Of a stretch of DNA of 64,000 bases, positions 7,984-63,300 are shown piece by piece. The DNA is taken from NCBI GenBank assembly GCA_964016885.1, contig OZ024755.1, positions 36,518,001 to 36,582,000 on the forward strand, given 5' to 3'. The DNA is from Eledone cirrhosa (taxonomy: Eukaryota). A program made the translations under genes and the position numbers. Each line of letters starts with the position of its first letter. The stretch's first letter is position 1. Below the pieces are notes generated by a model. The model saw only the letters and a program-made list of their open reading frames with translations, ran no database searches and was not told where the DNA came from.

Positions 7984-8146
7984 TATATATATATATAATC
8001 ATTACTATTTAGTATCTATTTTCTATGCTTACAATAGTTAGACAGGTTCTCATGTTTTGAGCCTTCGCAGGTCAAGTGACCATGTCTTGTTCATATATTC
8101 CATTTTTTTGGTATCATTTCTAAAGCTTACTCTTTCTACAGCCAAC

Positions 8147-11100
8147 CACTTTACAGTGTATACTGGGCAAATTTTATTGTGACACAAGTGCTAGAACTTT
8201 ACAATGTGTGCTGTGTACATTATATCATGACACCACCTCTACCACTTTACAGTGTGTACTTGGTACATTATATCATGACACTATCTCTACCACTTTACAG
8301 TGTGTGCTGGGTACATTATATCATGACACAATCTCTACCACTTTACAGTGTGTACTGGGTATATTATATCATGACACTATCTCTACCACTTTACAGTGTG
8401 TGCTGGGTACATTATATCATGACACTATCTCTACCACTTTACAGTGTGTGCTGGGTATATTATATCATGACATTATCTCTACCACTTTACAGTGTGTACT
8501 GGGTACATTATATCATGACACCACCTCTACCACTTTACAGTGTGTACTGGGTACATTATATCATGACACTATCTCTACCACTTTACAGTGTGTGCTGGGT
8601 ACATTATATCATGACACTATCTCTACCACTTTACAGTGTGTACTGGGTACATTATATCATGACACTATCTCTACCACTTTACAGTGTGTGCTGGGTACAT
8701 TATATCATGACACCACCTCTACCACTTTACAGTGTGTGCTGGGTACATTATATCATGACACCACCTCTACCACTTTACAGTGTGTGCTGGGTACATTATA
8801 TCATGACACCACCTCTACCACTTTACAGTGTGTGCTGGGTACGTTATATCATGACACTATCTCTACCACTTTACAGTGTGTACTGGGTACATTATATCAT
8901 GACACTATCTCTACCACTTTACAGTGTGTACTGGGTACATTATATCATGACATTATCTCTACCACTTTACAGTGTGTACTGGGTATATTATATCATGACA
9001 CTATCTCTACCACTTTACAGTGTGTGCTGGGTACATTATATCATGACACCACCTCTACCACTTTACAGTGTGTGCTGGGTACATTATATCATGACACCAC
9101 CTCTACCACTTTACAGTGTGTACTGGGTACATTATATCATGACACCACCTCTACCACTTTACAGTGTGTACTGGGTATATTATATCATGACATTATCTCT
9201 ACCACTTTACAGTGTGTGCTGGGTACATTATATCATGACACCACCTCTACCACTTTACAGTGTGTGCTGGGTACATTATATCATGACACCACCTCTACCA
9301 CTTTACAGTGTGTGCTGGGTACATTATATCATGACACCACCTCTACCACTTTACAGTGTGTACTTGGTACATTATATCATGACACTATCTCTACCACTTT
9401 ACAGTGTGTGCTGGGTACATTATATCATGACACAATCTCTACCACTTTACAGTGTGTACTGGGTATATTATATCATGACACTATCTCTACCACTTTACAG
9501 TGTGTGCTGGGTACATTATATCATGACACTATCTCTACCACTTTACAGTGTGTGCTGGGTATATTATATCATGACATTATCTCTACCACTTTACAGTGTG
9601 TACTGGGTACATTATATCATGACACCACCTCTACCACTTTACAGTGTGTACTGGGTACATTATATCATGACACTATCTCTACCACTTTACAGTGTGTGCT
9701 GGGTACATTATATCATGACACCACCTCTACCACTTTACAGTGTGTGCTGGGTACGTTATATCATGACACTATCTCTACCACTTTACAGTGTGTACTGGGT
9801 ACATTATATCATGACACTATCTCTACCACTTTACAGTGTGTACTGGGTACATTATATCATGACATTATCTCTACCACTTTACAGTGTGTACTGGGTATAT
9901 TATATCATGACACTATCTCTACCACTTTACAGTGTGTGCTGGGTACATTATATCATGACACCACCTCTACCACTTTACAGTGTGTGCTGGGTACATTATA
10001 TCATGACACCACCTCTACCACTTTACAGTGTGTACTGGGTACATTATATCATGACACCACCTCTACCACTTTACAGTGTGTACTGGGTATATTATATCAT
10101 GACATTATCTCTACCACTTTACAGTGTGTGCTGGGTACATTATATCATGACACCACCTCTACCACTTTACAGTGTGTGCTGGGTACATTATATCATGACA
10201 CCACCTCTACCACTTTACAGTGTGTGCTGGGTACATTATATCATGACACCACCTCTACCACTTTACAGTGTGTGCTGGGTACATTATATCATGACACTAT
10301 CTCTACCACTTTACAGTGTGTGCTGGGTATATTATATCATGACACTATCTCTACCACTTTACAGTGTGTGCTGGGTACATTATATCATGACACCATCTCT
10401 ACCACTTTACAATGTGTACTGGGTACATTATATCATGACACTATCTCTACCAACTGGGTATATTATATCATGACACCACCTCTACCACTTTACAGTGTGT
10501 GCTGGCTACATTATATCATGACACTATCTCTACCACTTTACAGTGTGTGCTGGGTATATTATATCATGACATTATCTCTACCACTTTACAGTGTGTGCTG
10601 GGTACATTATATCATGACACCACCTCTACCACTTTACAGTGTGTACTGGGTACATTATATCATGACACCACCTCTACCACTTTACAGTGTGTACTGGGTA
10701 TATTATATCATGACACCACCTCTACCACTTTACAGTGTGTGCTGGGTATATTATATCATGACATTATCTCTACCACTTTACAGTGTGTACTGGGTACATT
10801 ATATCATGACAATATCTCTACCACTTTACAGTGTGTGCTGGGTACATTATATCATGACACCACCTCTACCACTTTACAGTGTGTACTGGGTACATTATAT
10901 CATGACACTATCTCTACCACTTTACAGTGTGTGCTGGGTACATTATATCATGACACCACCTCTACCACTTTACAGTGTGTACTGGGTACATTATATCATG
11001 ACACTATCTCTACCACTTTACAGTGTGTACTGGGTACATTATATCATGACATTATCTCTACCACTTTACAGTGTGTACTGGGTACATTATATCATGACAC

Positions 11101-13680
11101 TATCTCTACCACTTTACAGTGTGTACTGGGTACATTATATCATGACACTATCTCTACCACTTTACAGTGTGTGCTGGGTATATTATATCATGACATTATC
11201 TCTACCACTTTACAGTGTGTGCTGGGTACATTATATCATGACACCATCTCTAATACTTTACAGTGTGTGCTGGGTACATTATATCATGACACCACCTCTA
11301 CCACTTTACAGTGTGTGCTGGGTACATTATATCATGACACTATCTCTACCACTTTACAGTGTGTACTGGGTACATTATATCATGACACCATCTCTACCAC
11401 TTTACAGTGTGTGCTGGGTACATTATATCATGACATTATCTCTACCACTTTACAGTGTACTGGGTACATTATATCATGACACCACCTCTACCACTTTACA
11501 GTGTGTGCTGGGTATATTATATCATGACACTATCTCTACCACTTTACAGTGTGTACTGGGTACATTATATCATGACACTATCTCTACCACTTTACAGTGT
11601 GTGCTGGGTATATTATATCATGACATTATCTCTACCACTTTACAGTGTGTACTGGGTACATTATATCATGACAATATCTCTACCACTTTACAGTGTGTGC
11701 TGGGTACATTATATCATGACACCACCTCTACCACTTTACAGTGTGTACTGGCTACATTATATCATGACACTATCTCTACCACTTTACAGTGTGTGCTGGG
11801 TACATTATATCATGACACCACCTCTACCACTTTACAGTGTGTACTGGGTACATTATATCATGACACTATCTCTACCACTTTACAGTGTGTACTGGGTACA
11901 TTATATCATGACATTATCTCTACCACTTTACAGTGTGTACTGGGTACATTATATCATGACACTATCTCTACCACTTTACAGTGTGTACTGGGTACATTAT
12001 ATCATGACACTATCTCTACCACTTTACAGTGTGTGCTGGGTATATTATATCATGACATTATCTCTACCACTTTACAGTGTGTGCTGGGTACATTATATCA
12101 TGACACCATCTCTAACACTTTACAGTGTGTGCTGGGTACATTATATCATGACACCACCTCTACCACTTTACAGTGTGTGCTGGGTACATTATATCATGAC
12201 ACTATCTCTACCACTTTACAGTGTGTACTGGGTACATTATATCATGACACTATCTCTACCACTTTACAATGTGTACTGGGTACATTATATTATGACACCA
12301 TCTCTACCACTTTACAGTGTGTACTGGGTATATTATATCATGACACCACCTCTACCACTTTACAGTGTGTACTGGGTATATTATATCATGACACTATCTC
12401 TACCACTTTACAGTGTGTGCTGGGTACATTATATCATGACACTATCTCTACCACTTTACAGTGTGTACTGGGTACGTTATATCATGACACTATCTCTACC
12501 ACTTTACAGTGTGTACTGGGTACATTATATCATGACACCTATCTCTACCACTTTACAGTGTGTACTGGGTACATTATATCATGACACCACCTCTACCACT
12601 TTACAGTGTGTACTGGGTATATTATATCATGACACCACCTCTACCACTTTACAGTGTGTGCTGGGTACATTATATCATGACACCACCTCTACCACTTTAC
12701 AGTGTGTGCTGAGTACATTATATCATGACACTATCTCTACCACTTTACAGTGGGTACTGGGTACATTATATCATGACACCACCTCTACCACTTTACAGTG
12801 TGTGCTGGGTACATTATATCATGACACTATCTCTACCACTTTACAGTGTGTGCTGGGTACATTATATCATGACACCACCTCTACCACTTTACAGTGTGTG
12901 CTGTGTATATTATATCATGACACTATCTCTACCACTTTACAGTGGGTACTGGGTACATTATATCATGACACTATCTCTACCACTTTACAGTGTGTGCTGA
13001 GTACATTATATCATGACACTATCTCTACCACTTTACAGTGTATACTGGGTACATTATATCATGACACCACCTCTACCACTTTACAGTGTGTGCTGGGTAC
13101 ATTATATCATGACATTATCTCTACCACTTTACAGTGTGTACTGGGTATATTATATCATGACACTATCTCTACCACTTTACAGTGTGTACTGGGTACATTA
13201 TATCATGACACTATCTCTACCACTTTACAGTGTGTGCTGGGTACATTATATCATGACACCACCTCTACCACTTTACAGTGTGTGCTGGGTACATTATATC
13301 ATGACACCACCTCTACCACTTTACAGTGTGTGCTGAGTACATTATATCATGACACTATCTCTACCACTTTACAGTGTGTGCTGGGTACATTATATCATGA
13401 CACTATCTCTACCACTTTACAGTGTGTGCTGAGTACATTATATCATGACACTATCTCTACCACTTTACAGTGTGTGCTGGGTACATTATATCATGACACT
13501 ATCTCTACCACTTTACAGTGTGTACTGGATACATTATATCATGACACTATCTCTACCACTTTACAGTGTATACTGGGTACATTATGTCATGACACTATCT
13601 CTACCACTTTACAGTGTGTGCTGGGTACATTATATCATGACACTATCTCTACCACTTTACAGTGTGGGCTGGGTGCATTT
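8147..13680. repeat. 48-bp minisatellite, ~115 copies, derived from the RTE 3'UTR repeat
   Basis: Unit ccactttacagtgtgt(a/g)ctgggtacattatatcatgacac(ta/ca)(t/c)ctcta. Both flanks grade into a diverged RTE-3'UTR module. Confidence 0.95.
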
Positions 13681-14244
13681 TATTGTGCACCAGCACTACC
13701 ATTTTACAGAATCAGCTGGGGACATTTTATCATGGCACTCTCACTACCTATTACACCATAGACCAATCAATAGAAGAATACATAAACACACACATCACAC
13801 ACAGGCATTTCTCATTAACTAATTGCGATTCCTAAGATTAACCTATGAAATGGATGTGGTTTGTATATCTTCTTCCAGCCAAATGTTTTACACCTAGATC
13901 AACTTCTGAAGTATGAAGTGGGTAGACTAGCACGTTTATACAGCAGCATACCTTTACAAACACCCACCATTAAACTACAAAGTGGATGTAATACCCATTT
14001 TTTGCTAGGTTGATTGGCGACATTTCAAATAATCAGTCAAGGGATAAAATGATGATGAGTGAGTTTAAAATTTGATCTGTCAGCCAACACGTCTCTTCTT
14101 TTAAATTCTCCTTCAAACACTGTCTCTGGTGTGGAAATCATCTTGGTGACAACAACCTGGTCTTTTATTATAAACAATAAATTATTAAATAAAATTATTA
14201 ACCATCTTGCCAACAACAACTCTGAACACTTTTTTGAATTTCAT

Positions 14245-18951: not shown

Positions 18952-19652
18952 ATATATTTATTAAAATAACAGATTAAAGTTTAAGCAAAGAATCGCTGCT
19001 TTCACCCTTAACGGGATCTTCTGAAACTAACAAAGTCAATCTGTGAATGCAGAAGTGAATATTTCAAAAAACATTGCAACCGGAGGAAGACAGGAAGACG
19101 ATACTTTGGTTCGTGGAAACGTTCCCTGGCAAAGAACGGGAAGAAACGAATATAATACGTCATTATTTGGAGCGGTGAAAAACAATTACACGCAAAGACA
19201 AAACCACGTTTATGGTATAAAAGAAGTTGTGCGATGTTTTCGCGTATGCTTGTGTATGTACGTATATGGATGCGTGTATGTATTTATTTAATTTCAATTA
19301 CCTCTGTATTTTTTTAACTTTATTCTTAACTCTGAAGCGGAGATTCATTCAGTTTCCTAGTTAGAATTTTAGTCTACGACTTCAGTTATACCATAAACGT
19401 CGTTTTGTCTTTGCGTGCAATTGTTTTTCACTGCTCCAAATAATGACGTATTATCTTCGTTTTTTCCCGTTCTTTGCCAGGGAACATTTCCACGAACCAA
19501 AGTATCGTCTTCCTGTCTTCCTCCGGTTGCAACATTTTTTGAAATATTCACTTCTACGTTCACAGATTGACTTTGTTAGTTTCAGAAGATCCCGTTAAGG
19601 GTGAAAGCAGCGATTCTTTGCTTAAACTTTAATCTGTTATTTTAATAAATAT
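18952..19652. repeat. Inverted repeat (~280-bp arms, ~145-bp spacer), Penelope-terminal-like
   Basis: 18952-19230 is the reverse complement of 19375-19652. The ORF track shows the same peptide on both strands. The element borders (TA)n. Confidence 0.9.
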
Positions 19653-19810
19653 TTGCTCTATGGTTCTTATATATTTGATATATATTTATCCTTATCGAGC
19701 TCTCTTTGGATTTTAGTCTTCAAATTTATTATTATTACTATATATATATATATACAAAATAAAGTAATTAAGTCAAATATTTAAAATTTGGCTTCGTTTA
19801 TTAAAGATGT

Positions 19811-39009: not shown

Positions 39010-40610
39010 CCTTTTCATTAAAAATATAGGACTTCAAATAGAACTTCAACAGACAACCCAAACCGCCAACTCTCTCAACATAACTGTAGAACTAGAAACC
39101 GGACTATAGCCTCATACCACAAGCCTAATGAATGTCTCCGGTACTTAAATAACCATACCAACCATCCCAAGTGCTAAATTCCATCGTGAAAGGTGTATCC
39201 AACAGAATATCCAGCATCGGCCAACGCAGAGATATTCAAACAATTTGCTGAATACTTTAACGCGCTGACTGGGGCTGGTTACACCGAATCTATTAGGTTC
39301 AATTGCCGTAGTGGCCTTAATGTAGCTAACTCCGACACCAGACACCAGACACAGAATTCCAAGACATAACCCACGGACCCACCCTCGACTGCATTTTGAC
39401 ATCCGCTAACCTAACCCGACCAAAGCTAAGCGGAATCTCCCAGCCACGACAACATACAGGCCATGGTTGAACAAGGCACAGTGGACACTCCGACAACAGT
39501 TGCCCTCCTACGAACCATATACCAGTTTGCACTGAGAACCACACCGACAATGACAACCACAACTCTACCCCCACAGCTGGTACCAACACCATAACCAGCC
39601 TTGATAACAACAGCATTGCCCACATTCAGACTGGAAGAACCAACCAAGCCTCAGGTTCCCACCCCCAACTATCGCCTCCCTGACACAGAAGGAACCAGGG
39701 GTAGGAGTGCCAAACCCTTCGACATCATTCGACGTGGTCATCACCACGGAACCTGAACTAACAAGCCCCTCTTTCTGGTCCTTACCATCAACCAACAAAA
39801 TAACTGCAGACACTTCCGTAATGCGATGACCAACAGCCAGATCACTCCACCCAATGCACGTCCGACCCCAGCACAGTCTGCCTACTACAACGCCACACAA
39901 AGGCCATCCACTGCGCACAGAAGATCCCGCAATATATATGTCACCTGGTTTAACATGCCTTACTCCACACATGTCAGTACGAACATCCCAGGAATATTCT
40001 TCAGGGTCCTTAACCAGTGCTTCCCCCCAACATATAGATACCATCAGATCTGCAACAGGCACACAACCAAGTTCTCTTTCTCAACAACACCAAACCTTTA
40101 GAGCTTGATAATGGCCATCAACCAAAATAAGATCGGGAAACACCCACAGTAGCCATGACTCTGCACCCAACCACCAACTCCGGGTTGCAAACAAATATGA
40201 CAGTCCCAACCATCGGACAAACAACATCCAACCAAACCATGCCACAGATCTTCCACAAACCCACACCACCGAGCTGCCAGACACCCATGCCCCCATGAAT
40301 CGGAAGTGCAACTGCAGATCCCGTATGGAGTGTCAGTTTCGAAACAACTGCTTGGTCTCCGGTATCATATACAGATGCACCATTCATGTGGAAAACAGTA
40401 GAAAATATGTATACATAGGGACAATTGGCGGAGATTTTAAATCCCGTTTCTACAACCATGCATGTTCCTTCAGACATCGGCATAAAAGATTGCAATCCAG
40501 TCTGTCTGAACAGGTATGGCAGCTTAAGGACGGTAACATCACCTTTAGAACGGAATGAGACATCACTTAGGAGGACAACACTGCCGGTTATGCCTTGCGG
40601 AAGCAGTGGA
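39010..40610 (+). mobile_element. Penelope-like element fragment (RT thumb, linker, GIY-YIG endonuclease), decayed
   Basis: PYHKPNECLRYLNNHTNHP; RNIYVTWFNMPYSTHVSTNI; CNCRSRMECQFRNNC (CxCx5Cx5C); GIIYRC..YVYIG..FKSRFYNH. Confidence 0.85.
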
Positions 40611-45584: not shown

Positions 45585-48500
45585 GGGCTACTTCCCAGTT
45601 AGTCAGAAGTTGACATGGTGGTGGAATGGTACAATAGATGGAGCTACTTCCTAGTTAGTCAGAAGTTGACATGGTGGTGCAATGGTACAATAGATGGAGC
45701 TACTTCCTAGTTAGTCAGAAGTTGACATGGTGGTAGAATGGTACAATAGATGGAGCTACTTCCTAGTTAGTCAGAAGTTGACATGGTGGTAGAATGGTAC
45801 AATAGATGGAGCTACTTCCTAGTTAGTCAGAAGTTGACATGGTGGTGGAATGGTACAATAGATGGAGCTACTTCCTAGTTAGTCAGAAGTTGACATGGTG
45901 GTGGAATGGTACAATAGATGGAGCTACTTCCTAGTTAGTCAGAAGTTGACATGGTGGTGGAATGGTACAATAGATGGAGCTACTTCCTAGTTAGTCAGAA
46001 GTTGACATGGTGGTGCAATGGTACAATAGATGGAGCTACTTCCTAGTTAGTCAGAAGTTGACATGGTGGTAGAATGGTACAATAGATGGAGCTACTTCCT
46101 AGTTAGTCAGAAGTTGACATGGTGGTGCAATGGTACAATAGATGGAGCTACTTCCTAGTTAGTCAGAAGTTGACATGGTGGTAGAATGGTACACTAGATG
46201 GAGCTACTTCCTAGTTAGTCAGAAGTTGACATGGTGGTGCAATGGTACAATAGATGGAGCTACTTCCTAGTTAGTCAGAAGTTGACATGGTGGTGCAATG
46301 GTACAATAGATGGAGCTACTTCCTAGTTAGTCAGAAGTTGACATGGTGGTAGAATGGTACAATAGATGGAGCTACTTCCTAGTTAGTCAGAAGTTGACAT
46401 GGTGGTGGAATGGTACAATAGATGGAGCTACTTCCTAGTTAGTCAGAAGTTGACATGGTGGTGGAATGGTACAATAGATGGAGCTACTTCCTAGTTAGTC
46501 AGAAGTTGACATGGTGGTGGAATGGTACAATAGATGGAGCTACTTCCTAGTTAGTCAGAAGTTGACATGGTGGTGCAATGGTACAATAGATGGAGCTACT
46601 TCCTAGTTAGTCAGAAGTTGACATGGTGGTAGAATGGTACACTAGATGGAGCTACTTCCTAGTTAGTCAGAAGTTGACATGGTGGTGCAATGGTACAATA
46701 GATGGAGCTACTTCCTAGTTAGTCAGAAGTTGACATGGTGGTGCAATGGTACAATAGATGGAGCTACTTCCTAGTTAGTCAGAAGTTGACATGGTGGTAG
46801 AATGGTACAATAGATGGAGCTACTTCCTAGTTAGTCAGAAGTTGACATGGTGGTGGAATGGTACAATAGATGGAGCTACTTCCTAGTTAGTCAGAAGTTG
46901 ACATGGTGGTGGAATGGTACAATAGATGGAGCTACTTCCTAGTTAGTCAGAAGTTGACATGGTGGTGGAATGGTACAATAGATGGAGCTACTTCCTAGTT
47001 AGTCAGAAGTTGACATGGTGGTGCAATGGTACAATAGATGGAGCTACTTCCTAGTTAGTCAGAAGTTGACATGGTGGTAGAATGGTACACTAGATGGAGC
47101 TACTTCCTAGTTAGTCAGAAGTTGACATGGTGGTGGAATGGTACAATAGATGGAGCTACTTCCTAGTTAGTCAGAAGTTGACATGGTGGTAGAATGGTAC
47201 ACTAGATGGAGCTACTTCCTAGTTAGTCAGAAATTGACATGGTGGTAGAATGGTACACTAGATGGAGCTACTTCCTAGTTAGTCAGAAATTGACATGGTG
47301 GTAGAATGGTAAACTAGATGGAGCTACTTCCTAGTTAGTCAGAAATTGACATGGTGGTAGAATGGTACACTAGATGGAGCTACTTCCTAGTTAGTCAGAA
47401 GTTGACATGGTGGTAGAATGGTACAATAGATGGAGCTACTTCCTAGTTAGTCAGAAGTTGACATGGTGGTAGAATGGTACAATAGATGGAGCTACTTCCT
47501 AGTTAGTCAGAAGTTGACATGGTGGTGGAATGGTACAATAGATGGAGCTACTTCCTAGTTAGTCAGAAGTTGACATGGTGGTGGAATGGTACAATAGATG
47601 GAGCTACTTCCTAGTTAGTCAGAAGTTGACATGGTGGTGCAATGGTACAATAGATGGAGCTACTTCCTAGTTAGTCAGAAGTTGACATGGTGGTGCAATG
47701 GTACAATAGATGGAGCTACTTCCTAGTTAGTCAGAAGTTGACATGGTGGTGGAATGGTACAATAGATGGAGCTACTTCCTAGTTAGTCAGAAGTTGACAT
47801 GGTGGTGGAATGGTACAATAGATGGAGCTACTTCCTAGTTAGTCAGAAGTTGACATGGTGGTGCAATGGTACAATAGATGGAGCTACTTCCTAGTTAGTC
47901 AGAAGTTGACATGGTGGTGCAATGGTACAATAGATGGAGCTACTTCCTAGTTAGTCAGAAGTTGACATGGTGGTGGAATGGTACAATAGATGGAGCTACT
48001 TCCTAGTTAGTCAGAAGTTGACATGGTGGTGCAATGGTACAATAGATGGAGCTACTTCCTAGTTAGTCAGAAGTTGACATGGTGGTGGAATGGTACAATA
48101 GATGGAGCTACTTCCTAGTTAGTCAGAAGTTGACATGGTGGTGCAATGGTACAATAGATGGAGCTACTTCCTAGTTAGTCAGAAGTTGACATGGTGGTGC
48201 AATGGTACAATAGATGGAGCTACTTCCTAGTTAGTCAGAAGTTGACATGGTGGTGGAATGGTACAATAGATGGAGCTACTTCCTAGTTAGTCAGAAGTTG
48301 ACATGGTGGTGGAATGGTACAATAGATGGAGCTACTTCCTAGTTAGTCAGAAGTTGACATGGTGGTGCAATGGTACAATAGATGGAGCTACTTCCTAGTT
48401 AGTCAGAAGTTGACATGGTGGTAGAATGGTACAATAGATGGAGCTACTTCCTAGTTAGTCAGAAGTTGACATGGTGGTAGAATGGTACACTAGATGGAGC

Positions 48501-50301
48501 TACTTCCTAGTTAGTCAGAAGTTGACATGGTGGTGCAATGGTACAATAGATGGAGCTACTTCCTAGTTAGTCAGAAGTTGACATGGTGGTAGAATGGTAC
48601 AATAGATGGAGCTACTTCCTAGTTAGTCAGAAGTTGACATGGTGGTAGAATGGTACAATAGATGGAGCTACTTCCTAGTTAGTCAGAAATTGACATGGTG
48701 GTAGAATGGTAAACTAGATGGAGCTACTTCCTAGTTAGTCAGAAGTTGACATGGTGGTGGAATGGTACAATAGATGGAGCTACTTCCTAGTTAGTCAGAA
48801 GTTGACATGGTGGTAGAATGGTACACTAGATGGAGCTACTTCCTAGTTAGTCAGAAGTTGACATGGTGGTAGAATGGTACAATAGATGGAGCTACTTCCT
48901 AGTTAGTCAGAAATTGACATGGTGGTGGAATGGTACAATAGATGGAGCTACTTCCTAGTTAGTCAGAAGTTGACATGGTGGTAGAATGGTACACTAGATG
49001 GAGCTACTTCCTAGTTAGTCAGAAATTGACATGGTGGTAGAATGGTAAACTAGATGGAGCTACTTCCTAGTTAGTCAGAAGTTGACATGGTGGTGGAATG
49101 GTACACTAGATGGAGCTACTTCCTAGTTAGTCAGAAGTTGACATGGTGGTGGAATGGTACACTAGATGGACCTACTTCCCAGTTAGTCAGAAGTTGACAT
49201 GGTGGTAGAATGGTACACTAGATGGAGCTACTTCCTAGTTAGTCAGAAGTTGACATGGTGGTGGAATGGTACAATAGATGGAGCTACTTCCTAGTTAGTC
49301 AGAAGTTGACATGGTGGTGGAATGGTACACTAGATGGACCTACTTCCCAGTTAGTCAGAAGTTGACATGGTGGTAGAATGGTACACTAGATGGAGCTACT
49401 TCCTAGTTAGTCAGAAGTTGACATGGTGGTGGAATGGTACACTAGATGGAGCTACTTCCTAGTTAGTCAGAAGTTGACATGGTGGTGGAATGGTACACTA
49501 GATGGACCTACTTCCCAGTTAGTCAGAAGTTGACATGGTGGTAGAATGGTACACTAGATGGAGCTACTTCCTAGTTAGTCAGAAGTTGACATGGTGGTGG
49601 AATGGTACAATAGATGGAGCTACTTCCTAGTTAGTCAGAAGTTGACATGGTGGTGGAATGGTACAATAGATGAAGCTACTTCCTAGTTAGTCAGAAGTTG
49701 ACATGGTGGTAGAATGGTACAATAGATGAAGCTACTTCCTAGTTAGTCAGAAGTTGACATGGTGGTAGAATGGTACAATAGATGAAGCTACTTCCTAGTT
49801 AGTCAGAAGTTGACATGGTGGTGGAATGGTACAATAGATGGAGCTACTTCCTAGTTAGTCAGAAGTTGACATGGTGGTGGAATGGTACAATAGATGGACC
49901 TACTTCCCAGTTAGTCAGAAGTTGACATGGTGGTAGAATGGTACACTAGATGGAGCTACTTCCTAGTTAGTCAGAAGTTGACATGGTGGTAGAATGGTAC
50001 AATAGATGAAGCTACTTCCTAGTTAGTCAGAAGTTGACATGGTGGTGGAATGGTACAATAGATGGAGCTACTTCCTAGTTAGTCAGAAGTTGACATGGTG
50101 GTGGAATGGTACAATAGATGGAGCTACTTCCTAGTTAGTCAGAAGTTGACATGGTGGTAGAATGGTACAATAGATGGAGCTACTTCCTAGTTAGTCAGAA
50201 GTTGACATGGTGGTGGAATGGTACAATAGATGGAGCTACTTCCTAGTTAGTCAGAAGTTGACATGGTGGTGGAATGGTACAATAGATGGAGCTACTTCCC
50301 A
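45585..50301. repeat. 56-bp minisatellite, ~84 copies
   Basis: Unit gagctacttcctagttagtcagaagttgacatggtggt(g/a)gaatggtacaatagatg. Confidence 0.97.
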
Positions 50302-53589: not shown

Positions 53590-54400
53590 AATAGGTTCCC
53601 TTTACAAATACCGCTCCATGTTTAACAGACACAGGGTGAAACTAGGATACTCCTGTACTAAGAATATGAAGGCCCACATCACCAACAGCCCTAAGAGCAA
53701 AACCCCACCAGCATGCTCTTGCCAAAAGCCTGAAGCTTGTTCCCTTCAACAACAATGCAACACACCCGCTGTAATTTACAAAGCTATGGTCACTTCTAAC
53801 CGACCAAATCAACAACAAGAGGTTAAATCCGATGTAGGCATGGCAAAGGGCCGGTTTAAGGAACGCTTCCTGAACCATAAGTCGACCTTCAGATACCCGG
53901 ATAAACGATCGTCCACAAAACTTGCAAGCCCCGTATGGTCCCTCAAGGACTCAGGCATAGACTACTCCATCCAATGGAAAGCTATTTCTAAGTCCAAGCA
54001 AGGGGAAATCCGTCTTGTGGACTGTGCATTGAAGAAAGGATTTATATCCTGAGAAGATTACATAATAACGATTGCCTAAATTCAAGAAATGAACTCGTTT
54101 CACGTTGTCCACACATCTGGAAACACCTATTACATAATTACAAAGCTCCAGATTGACTCACATCAACAATCTATAATATTCTGAATAACTTGAATAATTT
54201 ATTCCGGACATCCACAGTTATCTCCCTTACATCGATCTATCATGGGTTTACCTCACCCAGGAGTGACTGTTTCTGCGCACGCGTATTCATACGGTTGTTT
54301 TTCCTTTTCCATACAACTTCATTTAGACCGAGCTGAGGATCCAAATAAGGTGAAACATTTGTTCTCGGTATCGTGAACTAACTGTTGTGGAACTACTTCT
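53590..54400 (+). mobile_element. Penelope-like element 3' part: GIY-YIG endonuclease, 3'UTR and ribozyme terminus
   Basis: FNRHRVKLGYSCTKNM; CSCQKPEACSLQQQC; VIYKA..VG.AKGRFKERFLNH. After a frameshift CGLCIEER..LNSRNELVSRCPH, with the stop at 54156. Confidence 0.88.
54327..54369 (+). ncRNA. Minimal type I hammerhead ribozyme in the Penelope 3' terminus
   Basis: accgag CTGAGGA t cc aaataa gg t GAAA catttg TT ctcggt: perfect 6-bp stem I and a GUU site. Confidence 0.75.
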
Positions 54401-54449: not shown

Positions 54450-54640
54450 AGGGCGGTGAATTGGCAGTATCGGTAGAGGGTCGGATGCCATGCTTTGACG
54501 CATAGAGTTACGGTCCTTGCCATTCTGAGTTCAAATCCCGCCGCGGTTAACTTTGCCTTTCATCCTTATGGGGTCGATAAAATAAAGTACCAGTAATACA
54601 CTGGGTAATTGCTGGCCTTGTGTCAAAAGTAGAAACAATT
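54450..54640 (+). mobile_element. Family-A SINE
   Basis: A/B boxes and core. Confidence 0.85.
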
Positions 54641-54646
54641 ATATAC

Positions 54647-54682
<36 letters not shown>

Positions 54683-54764
54683 CAGAGAGTGTAAACACAA
54701 AAAATATCCTAAAAAATATATAAAAAATATAGATTCCAAAAAATTCACTGTACTTACTATATGT

Positions 54765-54845
54765 GCCCTTACCGCAGTTTCAGATCCCAAACAAATAGAT
54801 AATCCACGTGGATTTCCATTGAGAAAGAGATCCTCGTCAGAAGGC
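54765..54845 (-). ncRNA. Type I hammerhead ribozyme with long stem II
   Basis: Reverse complement reads gcctt CTGACGA ggatctc...gggatct GAAA ctgcgg TA agggc. Confidence 0.72.
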
Positions 54846-55344
54846 TTTTCTCTCTCGGAGAATATAAAATTCCTGAGTTCAAATTACAAACTGGCGCCAT
54901 ACAAAACTGCCTCAGAATGAGAATAAATGAAACCGCGGTAAGGGCACATATAGTAAGTACAGTGAATTTTTTGGAATTTCTATTTTTTAAATATATTTTT
55001 TAGGATATTTTCTGTGTTTACACTCCCTGATTTTATATGTTCTGGCTTGTTAATTTATTAACTTGCCATTGAACCACACTAGCATACGGTCGGACTATAC
55101 TTATGTCCCTATGTGTATTAATTACGTGTAGGAACATATACCTTTAATATTATTCTCCCCAACGGTAGAGAAACCTTTGGTCGTATGAACGGCTGCTATT
55201 TTTAGCAGCACGGGATTGACCTGACCACCTTGCTTTCTGTCTTTGCACACGGTACTAGACAAAATTGTTTCATTCTGAGGCAGTTTTGTATGGCGCCAGT
55301 TTGTAATTTGAACTCGGGAATTTTATATTCTCCAAGAGAGAAAA

Positions 55345-55425
55345 GCCTTCTGACGAAGATCTCTTTCTCAATGGAAATCCGCTTGGATTATCTATTTGTT
55401 TGGGATCTGAAACCGTGGTAAGGGC
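55345..55425 (+). ncRNA. Type I hammerhead ribozyme with long stem II
   Basis: gcctt CTGACGA agatctc [38 nt incl. aatcc/ggatt hairpin] gggatct GAAA ccgtgg TA agggc, GUA site. Confidence 0.8.
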
Positions 55426-55620
55426 ACATATAGTAAGTACAGTGAATTTTTTGGAATCTCTATTTTTTAATATATTTTTTAGGATATTTTCTGTGTTTAC
55501 ACTCCCTGATTTTATATGTTCTGGCTTGTTAATTTATTAACTTGCCATTGAACCACACTAGCATATGGTCGGACTATACTTATGTCTCTATATGTATTAA
55601 TTACATGTAGGAACATATAC

Positions 55621-55679
<59 letters not shown>

Positions 55680-56138
55680 TACACATATCTACATATATTT
55701 TATACATTATATATATATATATATACACATATATATATTATATACATGCACATATCTATACACATATACACACACTTGAAGTTACTACATTACCTCTGTA
55801 ACAAGCTATAGTAGACACCCTCTGTTGCACACAGCTACATACAAAGAATTAAGCAAAGCTTTCATCAATGGTGGAAATAAGAATAAATTAGTAAATTGCA
55901 GAAGAAATCAAATCAAAACCAAATGAAAGAACTAGAACAAAGGCACACAATAAAGATATACAAATAATCCATTATGAAAACCACTCTAGCTCAGATATTA
56001 AAACTAATCGAAAGAGTTATTAAACAAAGCACCAAACCATTTGTAACTTCAGAAATTTTATTATATATTTTCTATGAAGATATTATGTCCACAGAAATAC
56101 TGATTAAAATATCAAGAGTTCTAAATCTATCACTGGTA

Positions 56139-59100
56139 TACAGTAGTCCCTTCATATTTGTGGGAGACTACTGTATGTGATATACAGTAGTCCCCTGGTA
56201 TTGTGGGGCACTACTGTATGTGATATATATGTACAGTAGTCCCCTAGTATTGTGGGGCACTACTGTATGTGATATACAGTAGTCCCCTGGTATTGTGGGG
56301 CACTACTGTATGTGATATACAGTAGTCCCCTAGTATTGTGGGGCACTACTGTATGTGATATATATGTACAGTAGTCCCCTAGTATTGTGGGGCACTACTG
56401 TATGTGATATACAGTAGTCCCCTAGTATTGTGGGAGACTACTGTATGTGATATACAGTAGTCCCCTGGTATTGTGGGGCACTACTGTATGTGATATACAG
56501 TAGTCCCCTAGTATTGTGGGGCACTACTGTATGTGATATACAGTAGTCCCCTGGTATTGTGGGGCACTACTGTATGTGATATACAGTAGTCCCCTGGTAT
56601 TGTGGGGCACTACTGTATGTGATATACAGTAGTCCCCTAGTATTGTGGGGCACTACTGTATGTGATATACAGTAGTCCCCTGGTATTGTGGGGCACTACT
56701 GTATGTGATATACAGTAGTCCCCTAGTATTGTGGGGCACTACTGTATGTGATATACAGTAGTCCCCTAGTATTGTGGGGCACTACTGTATGTGATATACA
56801 GTAGTCCCCTAGTATTGTGGGGCACTACTGTATGTGATATACAGTAGTCCCCTGGTATTGTGGGGCACTACTGTATGTGATATACAGTAGTCCCCTGGTA
56901 TTGTGGGGCACTACTGTATGTGATATATATGTACAGTAGTCCCCTAGTATTGTGGGGCACTACTGTATGTGATATACAGTAGTCCCCTGGTATTGTGGGG
57001 CACTACTGTATGTGATATACAGTAGTCCCCTAGTATTGTGGGGCACTACTGTATGTGATATATATGTACAGTAGTCCCCTAGTATTGTGGGGCACTACTG
57101 TATGTGATATACAGTAGTCCCCTAGTATTGTGGGGCACTACTGTATGTGATATACAGTAGTCCCCTGGTATTGTGGGGCACTACTGTATGTGATATACAG
57201 TAGTCCCCTAGTATTGTGGGGCACTACTGTATGTGATATATATGTACAGTAGTCCCCTAGTATTGTGGGGCACTACTGTATGTGATATACAGTAGTCCCC
57301 TGGTATTGTGGGGCACTACTGTATGTGATATACAGTAGTCCCCTAGTATTGTGGGGCACTACTGTATGTGATATATATGTACAGTAGTCCCCTAGTATTG
57401 TGGGGCACTACTGTATGTGATATACAGTAGTCCCCTAGTATTGTGGGAGACTACTGTATGTGATATACAGTAGTCCCCTGGTATTGTGGGGCACTACTGT
57501 ATGTGATATACAGTAGTCCCCTAGTATTGTGGGGCACTACTGTATGTGATATACAGTAGTCCCCTAGTATTGTGGGGCACTACTGTATGTGATATATATG
57601 TACAGTAGTCCCCTAGTATTGTGGGGCACTACTGTATGTGATATACAGTAGTCCCCTAGTATTGTGGGAGACTACTGTATGTGATATACAGTAGTCCCCT
57701 GGTATTGTGGGGCACTACTGTATGTGATATACAGTAGTCCCCTAGTATTGTGGGAGACTACTGTATGTGATATACAGTAGTCCCCTGGTATTGTGGGGCA
57801 CTACTGTATGTGATATACAGTAGTCCCCTAGTATTGTGGGAGACTACTGTATGTGATATACAGTAGTCCCCTGGTATTGTGGGGCACTACTGTATGTGAT
57901 ATACAGTAGTCCCCTAGTATTGTGGGACACTACTGTATGTGATATACAGTAGTCCCCTGGTATTGTGGGGCACTACTGTATGTGATATACAGTAGTCCCC
58001 TAGTATTGTGGGGCACTACTGTATGTGATATATATGTACAGTAGTCCCCTAGTATTGTGGGGCACTACTGTATGTGATATACAGTAGTCCCCTAGTATTG
58101 TGGGGCACTACTGTATGTGATATACAGTAGTCCCCTGGTATTGTGGGGCACTACTGTATGTGATATACAGTAGTCCCCTAGTATTGTGGGGCACTACTGT
58201 ATGTGATATATATGTACAGTAGTCCCCTAGTATTGTGGGGCACTACTGTATGTGATATACAGTAGTCCCCTAGTATTGTGGGGCACTACTGTATGTGATA
58301 TACAGTAGTCCCCTGGTATTGTGGGGCACTACTGTATGTGATATACAGTAGTCCCCTAGTATTGTGGGGCACTACTGTATGTGATATATATGTACAGTAG
58401 TTCCCTAGTATTGTGGGGCACTACTGTATGTGATATACAGTAGTCCCCTAGTATTGTGGGGCACTACTGTATGTGATATACAGTAGTCCCCTGGTATTGT
58501 GGGGCACTACTGTATGTGATATACAGTAGTCCCCTAGTATTGTGGGGCACTACTGTATGTGATATATATGTACAGTAGTCCCCTAGTGTTGTGGGGCACT
58601 ACTGTATGTGATATACAGTAGTCCCCTAGTATTGTGGGGCACTAATGTATGTGATATACAGTAGTCCCCTGGTATTGTGGGGCACTACTGTATGTGATAT
58701 ACAGTAGTCCCCTAGTATTGTGGGGCACTACTGTATGTGATATATATGTACAGTAGTCCCCTAGTATTGTGGGGCACTACTGTATGTGATATACAGTAGT
58801 CCCCTAGTATTGTGGGGCACTACTGTATGTGATATACAGTAGTCCCCTGGTATTGTGGGGCACTACTGTATGTGATATACAGTAGTCCCCTAGTATTGTG
58901 GGGCACTACTGTATGTGATATATATGTACAGTAGTCCCCTAGTATTGTGGGGCACTACTGTATGTGATATACAGTAGTCCCCTAGTATTGTGGGGCACTA
59001 CTGTATGTGATATACAGTAGTCCCCTAGTATTGTGGGGCACTACTGTATGTGATATACAGTAGTCCCCTAGTATTGTGGGGCACTACTGTATGTGATATA

Positions 59101-60211
59101 CAGTAGTCCCCTAGTATTGTGGGGCACTACTGTATGTGATATACAGTAGTCCCCTAGTATTGTGGGGCACTACTGTATGTGATATACAGTAGTCCCCTAG
59201 TATTGTGGGGCACTACTGTATGTGATATACAGTAGTCCCCTAGTATTGTGGGGCACTACTGTATGTGATATACAGTAGTCCCCTAGTATTGTGGGGCACT
59301 ACTGTATGTGATATACAGTAGTCCCCTAGTATTGTGGGGCACTACTGTATGTGATATACAGTAGTCCCCTAGTATTGTGGGGCACTACTGTATGTGATAT
59401 ACAGTAGTCCCCTAGTATTGTGGGGCACTACTGTATGTGATATACAGTAGTCCCCTAGTATTGTGGGGCACTACTGTATGTGATATACAGTAGTCCCCTA
59501 GTATTGTGGGGCACTACTGTATGTGATATACAGTAGTCCCCTAGTATTGTGGGGCACTACTGTATGTGATATACATATACAGTAGTCCCCTAGTATTGTG
59601 GGGCACTACTGTATGTGATATACAGTAGTCCCCTAGTATTGTGGGGCACTACTGTATGTGATATACATATACAGTAGTCCCCTAGTATTGTGGGGCACTA
59701 CTGTATGTGATATACAGTAGTCCCCTGGTATTGTGGGGCACTACTGTATGTGATATACATATACAGTAGTCCCCTAGTATTGTGGGGCACTACTGTATGT
59801 GATATACAGTAGTCCCCTAGTATTGTGGGAGACTACTGTATGTGATATACAGTAGTCCCCTAGTATTGTGGGGCACTACTGTATGTGATATACAGTAGTC
59901 CCCTAGTATTGTGGGAGACTACTGTATGTGATATACAGTAGTCCCCTAGTATTGTGGGGCACTACTGTATGTGATATACAGTAGTCCCCTAGTATTGTGG
60001 GGCACTACTGTATGTGATATACAGTAGTCCCCTAGTATTGTGGGGCACTACTGTATGTGATATACATGTACAGTAGTCCCCTAGTATTGTGGGGCACTAC
60101 TGTATGTGATATACAGTAGTCCCCTAGTATTGTGGGGCACTACTGTATGTGATATACATGTACACTAGTCCCCTGGTAGTGTGGGGCACTACTGTATGTG
60201 ATATACATGTA
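56139..60211. repeat. 43-bp (51-bp variant) hairpin satellite, ~90 copies
   Basis: Unit TA-CAGTAGTCCCC-tagtattgt-GGGG(C)ACTACTG-TA-tgtgata. Confidence 0.97.
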
Positions 60212-61639: not shown

Positions 61640-62780
61640 ATTCTCATTTCTACATACTAGAACTTTAGTCTTAGACAAGTTAACTTTAAGGCCTTTTGAT
61701 TCTAGGCCATGCTTCCATATTTGGAATTTCTTCTCTAGTTCAGCCATAGATTCAGGTATAGATCATCTGCATATAGAAGTTCCTATGGGCAGCCAGTCTT
61801 AAACTCTTCTGTTATAGCATATAAGGCAATAATAAACAGGAGGAGGCTAAGGACGGAACCTTGGTGAACACCTACTTTTACGCTAAATTCTTCACTATAT
61901 TCATTAATTCTAACCTTGCTGATTGTTCCTCTATACATGGCTTGTAGAGATCTCACAAGCCACTCATCTACTCCTAGTTTTCTAAGAGCCCACCAGATAA
62001 TGGAGCAAGGTACTCTGTCAAAGGCTTTCTCCAAGTAAACAAAAGCTAAGTAGAGGGGTTTACCTTTAGCTAAGTACTTCTCTCATAGTTATCATACAAG
62101 GAAGAGAGCATCTATGGTACTTTTACCTGGCACAAACATAAACTCTAATCAGTGGTGCAAGAACTCTTTCTGTGACCTTCATGACCTGGTTAACTAACTT
62201 AATGCCTCTATAGTTTTCTATATCTAGAGCATCTCCTTTGCCCTTGCAGTAGTTAACTATGATGTTGCTATGCCAGTCCTTTGGTATGACCCTATTCTGC
62301 ATTACTTGGTCTACTATCCGGGTGACCATAGTCTGTCCCTCTGTTAGCTCAATTTGGGGCACAATATCTTCATCCCATTATTCTCCTCATTTAGTAGTTT
62401 CTTGTAGTGACACTTCCAAGCTACCTTCTGATCACTATCAGCAAGGGCAAGTATACCATCATCATTACGGACACACTTCTCCCCAACAATATCACAATTT
62501 TCCTTGACACATTGTCTTACAATCCTGAACACCTCACGCTTTTGGTCCTCGCGTTGTAGAACATGCTTGAACTTTCTATCCTCTGCTTCCTTTCTTGCAA
62601 AGTACACTGTCGCCTAGCTTCTCTCCTAGCCACCTAATAGTGTTCTCTACTTCCCCCCATTCTTTCCAAGCCGGCTTTTTGGCCTTGATTGTCTCCTCCA
62701 CTTTACTGTTCCACTACCAAGTTACTCCCCTCCTGCCTAAAGGTCTGCTCCAGCCACAGATTTCATATGTTGCCTTCAGC
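61640..62780 (-). mobile_element. RTE LINE RT fragment (decayed)
   Basis: KGKGDALDIENYRGIKL; EKAFDRVP..IWWALRKLGV; GVHQGSVLS.LLF. Confidence 0.9.
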
Positions 62781-62789
62781 AGGTTAACT

Positions 62790-63300
62790 TCCCTAAACAG
62801 CACAGGTACCGCACCATTTTCAGCAGGCACACAATTGAATTGTCCAACTCCACAACTGCATCTTCCTCCAATAGGAACACTATGAACTGACTGCGACCAC
62901 GGAAACATAAAGTACAGTCCAGGCAGCAACACCTCCTCGAATTGTAGAAGCCTCGGTAACTGCTCCTTGGAAGGCAAATGCCTTGGCAGTAGCTTAGTCT
63001 ATGAATGTAGGGTGAGTACCAATAACCAAACCTTCACCTATATTGGAGCTACAGCTAATAAATTTAAAGAACGCTGGTACAACCACTGCCACACCTCTAG
63101 GAGAATGGATAAGAAAAACAGCTCTGCCCTCTCTGAACTGGTGTGGCTGCTCAAGCATGACTCGTGCAATCTATGTCGCCAAGATTATGGAGATAATCGA
63201 GAGGAGAACGCAGATTATCAATAAGAGGAGTAACCTGTTCAGCACCTACCACCACAGATCAACTGGAACTTTCCTCAGACTGTATGGAATAGCAGCGTAG
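62790..63300 (+). mobile_element. Penelope-like GIY-YIG fragment
   Basis: HRYRTIFSRHTIELS; NCRSLGNCSLEGKC; LVYECRV..YIGATANKFKERWYNH; CNLC..INKRSNLFS. Confidence 0.8.

Follow-up and report, generated by a model that had tools for sequence, protein, structure and literature searches.

Introduction

In the accessible parts of two reports (PMC7229834; bioRxiv 10.64898/2026.07.22.740005), animal non-LTR retrozymes are described as non-coding tandem units with one type I hammerhead per unit, a GC content below 50%, strong self-pairing, a short palindromic stem III, monomer-to-multimer copies and co-occurrence with Penelope-type elements (PLEs). Animal hammerhead repeats yield circular RNAs, circles being the main form in the animal retrozymes tested, and copying of circles by a PLE or LINE enzyme has been proposed (PMC7229834, accessible part); the mobility mechanism is stated as still to be shown in the accessible part of the later report (bioRxiv 10.64898/2026.07.22.740005). 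Endonuclease-positive Neptune-type PLEs, as far as the available parts of the sources describe them (PMC8557442; PMC3846280; PMC4209133), use microsatellite targets, carry a hammerhead near the 3' end, and leave partial tandems with an inverted 5'-truncated copy and an optional tail, which is confined to one end. To account for Penelope structures, earlier work put forward antisense self-priming (PMC3846280). In vitro, purified protein of the green anole PLE Poseidon PAc uses two internal reverse transcription start sites downstream of the hammerhead and cleaves and extends both strands of an AT-rich target, and it is predicted to be a dimer (PMC11167929). Finally, Chlamys elements such as MRC1 are non-coding PLE dependants with multicopy head-to-tail insertions (PMC8557442).

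The Eledone cirrhosa family treated here shares the sequence and insertion features listed above for animal non-LTR retrozymes and Neptune-type PLEs, resembles Poseidon PAc in its two start sites and AT-rich target and Chlamys elements in its non-coding, multicopy habit, and has, in many copies, a U-U or other weak pair at the stem II base, like axolotl HHR_Amex2 in the part of the literature available. There are also significant differences. Compared with animal non-LTR retrozymes as the accessible parts of the two reports present them, its units of 474-496 nt exceed the 150-450 bp of one account (PMC7229834) and lie within the 51-972 bp of the other (bioRxiv 10.64898/2026.07.22.740005), stem II is extended to ~52 nt and is missed by Rfam, and comparison with the one PLE family examined at length showed no likeness of the unit to the pLTR of an autonomous element beyond a short stem-loop; for the Eledone units, the DNA resolves where insertions end, the two start sites and the marker pedigrees. 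Unlike the Neptune-type PLEs, again as far as the accessible text goes, the unit has no ORF, measures 0.48 kb, occurs in up to 19 copies and has a tail of 108-112 nt rather than 30-40 bp. Poseidon PAc is autonomous, uses uncut RNA and shows no strand difference in start site (PMC11167929), whereas the Eledone genomic record has one site per arm and points to a cut, re-copied monomer. Non-autonomous Chlamys elements share 3' sequence with their autonomous partners, and most are without a hammerhead (PMC8557442).

The class is thus already known; what is new, as read from the genome, is a cephalopod member and a mechanistic record of it. No report of a cephalopod retrozyme or of such a marker pedigree was found in the literature searched, as far as its accessible parts go; subscription papers, supplements and Repbase, which may list the family, lay outside it. 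The terms ribozyme, hammerhead and retrozyme are absent from the main text, the part available, of an octopus repeat annotation (PMC13282606). The insertion under study is an old copy, with two arms, of a non-coding 480-nt family that bears a hammerhead; its units are likely cut from tandem transcripts by the ribozyme, likely circularised and likely reverse-transcribed into (TA)n by a Neptune-type enzyme acting in trans. Read directly in the DNA are the family, a covarying stem, two fixed 3' ends, one site per arm, and daughter arrays that repeat one unit's markers.

Architecture of the Insertion

The window, the whole stretch of 64,000 nt that was analysed, contains from left to right a (TA)n tract (54640-54678), an inverted arm running from 54931 to 54674, a 4-nt overlap, half a hammerhead, a 480-nt unit, ~209 nt more and a second (TA)n tract (55625-55744). 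The inverted arm (54674-54931, reverse strand) comprises unit positions ~319-480 followed by 1-98, and its 3' end is start site S1, set against (TA)n; its extent to 54931 was derived by comparison with family copies that keep a stretch absent from the forward unit. It carries a complete type I hammerhead at 54765-54845, with G-U at the stem II base and the stem III loop CTGCGG. The arms meet head to head at the overlap TGAA (54928-54931), placed by comparing the window sequence with family copies.

On the forward strand, a 5'-truncated hammerhead (54928-54945) keeps only GAAA, the palindromic stem III, the cut site and the stem I 3' strand. It is followed by a full, ORF-less 480-nt monomer from cut site to cut site (54941-55420; 36.9% GC), which ends in a complete type I hammerhead (55345-55425) with a 52-nt extended stem II and a predicted cut after 55420. 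A tail at 55421-55629 is a second pass of unit positions 1-210, 96.7% identical to the first copy, and its 3' end is start site S2. Directly 3' of S1 (unit position 98, here 55038) lies a conserved forward-strand stem-loop (55039-55074), a candidate RT-docking element common to other families, and a second copy of it lies in the tail (55518-55553, forward strand). In terms of turns around the unit, the inverted arm corresponds to S1 plus ~0.5 turn and the forward arm to S2 plus ~1.5 turns. An A/U-rich long hairpin is predicted right after the cut site (54952-55022), in the window unit and in a young unit alike, and S1 sits between this hairpin and the shared stem-loop.

The structure that the original prediction had described here was borne out: a repeat of the hammerhead's 3' half 480 nt upstream (54929-54945), an inverted complete hammerhead (54845-54765), the flanking (TA)n tracts, and the lack of a recognisable ORF, as stop-to-stop frames touching the insertion reach at most 95 aa and are of low complexity. 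Its further proposal that 54941-55420 is a self-cleaving monomer proved right in the unit boundaries, which are those of the family, but release of a monomer from this particular copy is unlikely, because the upstream ribozyme consists of its 3' half only and a predicted fold of the read-through RNA has 78 of the forward ribozyme's 81 bases paired to the inverted arm. The arms are 96% complementary (54721-54920 against 55270-55469). With an inter-arm difference of 3-6% and nearest relatives 91% identical among the scored matches, the copy is judged to be old, and on these predicted folds it is probably a daughter that produces no circles, a dead end.

The Hammerhead Ribozyme

The forward hammerhead of the window matches the original prediction exactly in position and parts: stem I of GCCTT (55345-55349) and AGGGC (55421-55425), CTGACGA (55350-55356), GAAA (55409-55412), and a 7-bp stem II (55357-55363 with 55402-55408) that encloses a 38-nt insert. 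The stem III palindrome is broken in both complete window hammerheads (CCGTGG and CTGCGG), whereas the young subfamily has a longer palindrome. The stem II base is A-U or G-U in the window rather than G10.1-C11.1, and canonical G-C in the young subfamily. Folding of the isolated hammerhead stretches of the window was no better than that of shuffles (z -0.76 and -0.87), but the whole monomer folded far better than its shuffles (z = -5.06; young unit, z = -2.61). The Rfam Hammerhead_1 model, which had been suggested as a check, gave no match on the window unit at E<=1; Rfam returned no hammerhead on two young loci and only miRNA-type noise on six other loci. The misses on the window unit and the young loci are attributed to the long stem II.

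A pattern for the intact core, CTGANGA-N45-60-GAAACCGCGGTA, had 481 matches genome-wide, against 0 for a control pattern. The proximal stem II sequence is swapped among subfamilies with pairing kept (GATCTC/GGGATC, TGCTCC/GGAGCA, GGTTCC/GGAACT and others). This was quantified in 97 related copies, each from a different locus and picked because its core is intact, with 500 shuffles and slid controls: 93.7% of cells were paired, four of six pairs had changed on both sides, and the covariation score was 0.248, which none of the shuffles reached (slid controls <=0.085). The percentage of paired cells and the changed cells likewise lay above all 500 shuffles and all slid controls. Kinship of the copies inflates these three measures, and two pair-counting covariation measures did not exceed shuffles (361/500 and 279/500). 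Overall, the compensatory way in which stem II varies from one subfamily to another speaks for a functional fold and for a ribozyme that would be under selection. The strict core is retained in 49 of 71 copies, and many old copies have weakened ribozymes. A type I hammerhead is present in each repeat unit of the family; the forward arm of the window copy has one complete ribozyme only.

Family Size and Coding Content

Genome-wide searches found both dispersed and tandem copies, as had been anticipated. In the 3.0-Gb genome there are at least 1,544 exact junction matches, 415 in older subfamilies and 1,129 in the young subfamily (controls, 0), and the units form arrays of up to 19; a first look at the unit gave 2,353 candidates, of which 40 were scored. 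The family is non-coding, with a GC content below 50% and a self-paired predicted fold. After removal of duplicates, 171 loci (115 older, 55 young and one array) were examined with flanks of ~1-3 kb; ~50 were the best matches and the rest were taken by chromosome order, stem II variety or array shape, a sampling that could miss a rare coding parent.

In none of these 171 loci does a PLE ORF end with its UTR run into the unit, although a PLE-like protein fragment of some kind occurs in 47. The unit itself contains no ORF for RT and GIY-YIG endonuclease. Animal non-LTR retrozymes lack an LTR, a primer-binding site and a polypurine tract; the end maps of the family loci contain no LTR pair, and the possibility that the unit is a tRNA-derived SINE was discarded, no tRNA gene having been detected in five loci. 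In old copies, arms of the same locus belong to the same subfamily, with median ranks of within-locus against between-locus distance of 0.04 (inverted) and 0.07 (direct), values blurred by truncated pieces. By every DNA-testable feature, the family is an animal non-LTR retrozyme. The retrozyme-like or non-autonomous Penelope class named in the original prediction is supported, as the units are ORF-less, are inserted in two-armed Penelope fashion and are ORF-linked at 0/171 loci; the contrary outcome that the prediction itself had named, every homolog attached to a Penelope ORF, is not what these loci show.

Insertion Ends and Start Sites

Among 149 arms, 90 end at S1 (unit position 98), 40 at S2 (unit position 210) and 19 elsewhere, and 122 of the 130 S1 and S2 ends adjoin a TA run. 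The two sites are 112 nt apart. The 5' ends of the arms are ragged and the flanks are unrelated; target-site duplications, which exceed 4 bp in those animal non-LTR retrozymes that have them, are not readable inside (TA)n tracts. Two-armed loci with tails outward, the partial tandem with inverted truncated copy that the original prediction had cited for Penelope insertions, number 35 among 113 classed loci, and further ones occur among the young loci.

Of 24 two-armed insertions in which both ends could be classed, 23 have S1 as the end of one arm and S2 as that of the other (p 1.5e-6 against 0.5). The same holds for 11/12 young loci and 5/6 further loci, and the overall count, the window copy included, is 39 of 42 classed two-armed insertions, with 16 loci that have an unclassed end left out. 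In the large Neptune-type family described below, the same one-site-per-arm pattern was read by eye in 7/7 pairs, with sites ~90 nt apart. As recorded in the genome, the 39/42 pattern is the Penelope 'tail at one end' signature, and we infer that both cut DNA strands would be primed in coordination on a single template.

Unit ends and Neptune-type ends often lie on opposite sides of a single TA tract (L006, L024, L217 and L243), which indicates that insertions pile up in shared targets. A short strong-hairpin repeat often adjoins the same TA tracts, sometimes as inverted pairs (L035, L139, L144, L158 and L259).

Arrays and Marker Pedigrees

All array and marker patterns described here are those of the assembly sequence. 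The longest array, L122 (C1:176.444-176.453 Mb), is old, 5'-truncated and ends at S1; its 19 full units have a mean divergence of 11.4% and a mostly star-like tree. A few local clades (A11-A13) suggest later duplication or conversion at the DNA level. The young arrays L184 (8 units) and L243 (10 units, identical on both arms) show internal differences of 0-1 nt. In mixed young loci units differ from one another by 1-3 nt (L185), 4 nt (L212), 5 nt (L237) and 9, 9 and 0 nt (L239), from which it follows that template switches or later changes occur.

A very young burst comprises 16 loci (L243 and L280-L294). Three variants were at first taken as private to L243, and this was abandoned because a pattern that spans two of the three has 65 matches, spread over 16 loci. 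Because these variants are common to the 16 loci, array identity alone is no proof of a circle.

More can be learned from L288, where the end of one unit carries 460C and the start of its neighbour carries 61C/98C. These markers straddle one cut site at a distance of 86 nt, and each is confined to one unit. At L287, 460C is present in 4/4 copies together with 61T/98T; several 1-2 nt indels at this locus may be assembly errors. At L291, 61C is present in 4/4 copies and 98C in 3/3, together with 460T, and L281 has the L291 pattern in its 2 and 1 informative copies. A further marker, 345T, is fixed in 11/11 copies on both arms of L285. Linear read-through of L288 would be expected to place 460C beside 61C/98C, and this arrangement was seen in none of the three daughters, being absent already at the first junction. 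Marker inheritance in the youngest copies thus places the template boundary within the 86 nt that contain the cut site. The L288 markers are inherited separately and are fixed across daughter arrays, which fits re-copying of a ribozyme-bounded monomer, likely a circle, rather than linear read-through. We infer the direction of descent, with L288 as the parent; L288 could instead be a mosaic of three monomers, and unit-length templates would be needed in that case too.

Away from arm ends, 6 of 11 substitutions in the youngest burst (L243 and L280-L294) are T>C on the sense strand, a hand count of small numbers; this lean could be due to misreading of U by RT or to editing of the antisense strand. 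Three coded runs at a young locus gave short repeat contigs only and nothing on an empty site.

The Candidate Driver and a Shared Stem-Loop

One PLE family is very abundant, with 42,202 protein candidates at a first look, and its elements terminate in a degenerate hammerhead followed by (TA)n. It has open 709-aa ORFs in L095, L103 and L107, motifs are visible in the ORF, and its look-alikes carry GIY-YIG, RVT_1 and HTH_animal. We provisionally take it to be Neptune-type by the cysteine-rich linker between RT and the C-terminal GIY-YIG, as such a linker is described in PMC8557442. Pfam on two Neptune-type frames and on neighbouring window fragments named nothing beyond one weak GIY-YIG match.

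The unit is joined directly to Neptune-type sequence at 3 of the 171 loci, and two different families are involved. At L143, 1.2 units lie inside the ribozyme of the large Neptune-type family, a junction seen once. At L186 an arm begins on sequence of the same family, in a variant that occurs once, and then switches to the unit. L146 is a chimera in which the unit is joined to the middle of an inverted ORF piece of a second Neptune-type family. BLAST of the unit against the body and UTR of the large Neptune family showed no similarity, other PLE families having been compared as fragments only.

The stem-loop 3' of S1 is also present in a ~720-nt ribozyme family that is unrelated to the unit. 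Its motif has 2,906 exact matches in the two families taken together, two of its pairs are compensatory between them, and its ends are found in four more repeat families. Similar stem-loop ends lie at the same place in the large Neptune family, whose counterpart was not scored by a covariance model of the shared stem-loop. In sequence, the unit and this family are only marginally alike in the stem-loop, since 436, 30 and 11 out of 500 shuffles scored equally high, and a relaxed motif that does match it (background ~7e-4 per 20-nt slot) was chosen post hoc. Two other repeat families were considered as possible coding partners and set aside, both being ORF-less. Given the three chimeras and the weak shared motif, the drivers are likely Neptune-type elements whose ORFs are open, with no member family singled out.

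Neighbouring Repeats

Several other repeats were noted in the window and in the flanks of family loci. A second Neptune-type PLE family is represented at 53603-54399 of the window by a decayed 3' end, which has a GIY-YIG remnant and stops against TA; this family is unrelated to the 480-nt unit and is the chimera partner in L146. Within this remnant, at 54327-54369, there is a small hammerhead (Rfam E 0.037), likewise unrelated to the unit. A short two-armed insertion of the large Neptune-type family, with the short end left and the long-tail end right, is found at 18958-19740, and further PLE ORF remnants at 39940-40564 and 62744-63276. Long minisatellite arrays occupy 8145-13748, 45587-50299 and 56137-60207, with periods of 48, 56 and 43 nt; the 43-nt repeat is partly self-complementary and gives spurious miRNA matches in Rfam.

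Elsewhere, L172-L183 and L187-L199 belong to a second ORF-less family of ~650-720 nt (1,185 first-look candidates), with a 49-nt stem II in its hammerhead, an internal CA/TA microsatellite and the shared stem-loop after its short end. Three more hammerhead repeat families occur in flanks (L236/L244/L068; L238/L184/L130; L119/L008/L168/L203), each with the shared stem-loop ends after a TA-type end. An ORF-less tandem family of ~585 nt in TA tracts (L255-L279; 2,926 first-look candidates) also has the stem-loop ends, and no hammerhead was noticed in it by eye.

Proposed Mechanism and Alternatives

The preferred reading can be set out as a sequence of events. An array would be transcribed, and adjacent hammerheads would cut the transcript into monomers, probably while folded as dimers via the palindromic stem III. 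A host ligase would then close the monomer to a circle. The Penelope protein may dock on the stem-loop between S1 and S2 and cut both (TA)n strands, after which one strand would be primed at S1 and the other at S2 of the same template. Each cDNA would circle the template for anything from a fraction of a turn to ~19 turns, and the two cDNAs would finally be joined head to head via short homology. Two published results count against this explanation: in vitro, a PLE used uncut RNA as its main substrate and its own hammerhead was dispensable (PMC11167929), and eight of nine frog retrozyme dimers were without cleavage (bioRxiv 10.64898/2026.07.22.740005, accessible part).

Much of this scheme would also hold if the same element and driver used a linear, ribozyme-cut monomer, with the RT jumping from the 5' end to the 3' end of mostly the same bound molecule and no covalent circle. 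Such a template explains the separation of markers at the cut site equally well, and it accounts for mixed arrays (L185 and L239) and for chimeras with other RNAs. However, random jumps within a pool would not fix rare markers in 11/11, 4/4 and 4/4 copies, so that up to 19 re-jumps on one molecule would be needed, and circles predominate among those animal retrozymes that have been tested (PMC7229834, accessible part); we regard the linear monomer as unlikely. Slightly less credit still is given to a non-autonomous PLE copied from uncut linear multimers of homogeneous source arrays, with the hammerhead unused in template making. The purified PLE's preference for unprocessed RNA (PMC11167929), the existence of near-identical arrays as potential sources, and the weakened ribozymes of many old copies (strict core 49/71) all speak for such multimers. 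They nevertheless predict 460C next to 61C/98C by way of L288, found in 0/3 daughters, they require an unseen homogeneous source for each marker, and they sit poorly with compensatory stem II change across subfamilies, which points to a working fold.

It is highly improbable that the unit is a mere pseudo-LTR or internal-deletion remnant of an autonomous Penelope element, left behind by truncated insertions. Its target, tails and inversions are as in coding PLEs, frog retrozymes resemble pLTRs in the accessible part of one report (bioRxiv 10.64898/2026.07.22.740005), and the copies examined are part of the genome's total only; yet none of the 171 loci continues into an ORF end, up to 19 copies of the unit itself follow one another head to tail in an array, and the unit has no BLAST similarity to the body or UTR of the large Neptune family. 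Least credible of all is the reading in which the family is a satellite or minisatellite that multiplied through duplication and gene conversion of the DNA, its ribozyme being a relic. Clades A11-A13 of the old 19-unit array show that some DNA-level duplication has taken place, but the marks of retroposition are plain: the 3' ends are fixed and the 5' ends ragged, the flanks are unrelated, inversions have two arms, and each arm uses one start site. In addition, markers are fixed across the oppositely oriented arms of L285. This end structure rules out the satellite as the main route, and copying of a ribozyme-cut, circularised monomer is retained as the preferred reading.

Conclusion

A wider picture may be drawn, tentatively and with more doubt than confidence, in which at least six unrelated non-coding RNA circles form a guild that docks on a dimeric Neptune RT-endonuclease via one stem-loop. 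On a single circle, the two subunits would prime both cut strands at fixed sites flanking the stem-loop and then roll round that circle; such copying would be going on today, and the genome would record single-circle parent-daughter pedigrees.

For the family itself, genomic pedigrees distinguish a re-copied monomer from linear read-through. One start site per arm is a counted rule, under which the inverted repeats and the long-noted Penelope 'tail at one end' would both result from coordinated two-strand priming. In addition, the family supplies the parts for a direct test: its young units are nearly identical, its two start sites are mapped, and there are candidates for the docking stem-loop and for the partner ORFs.
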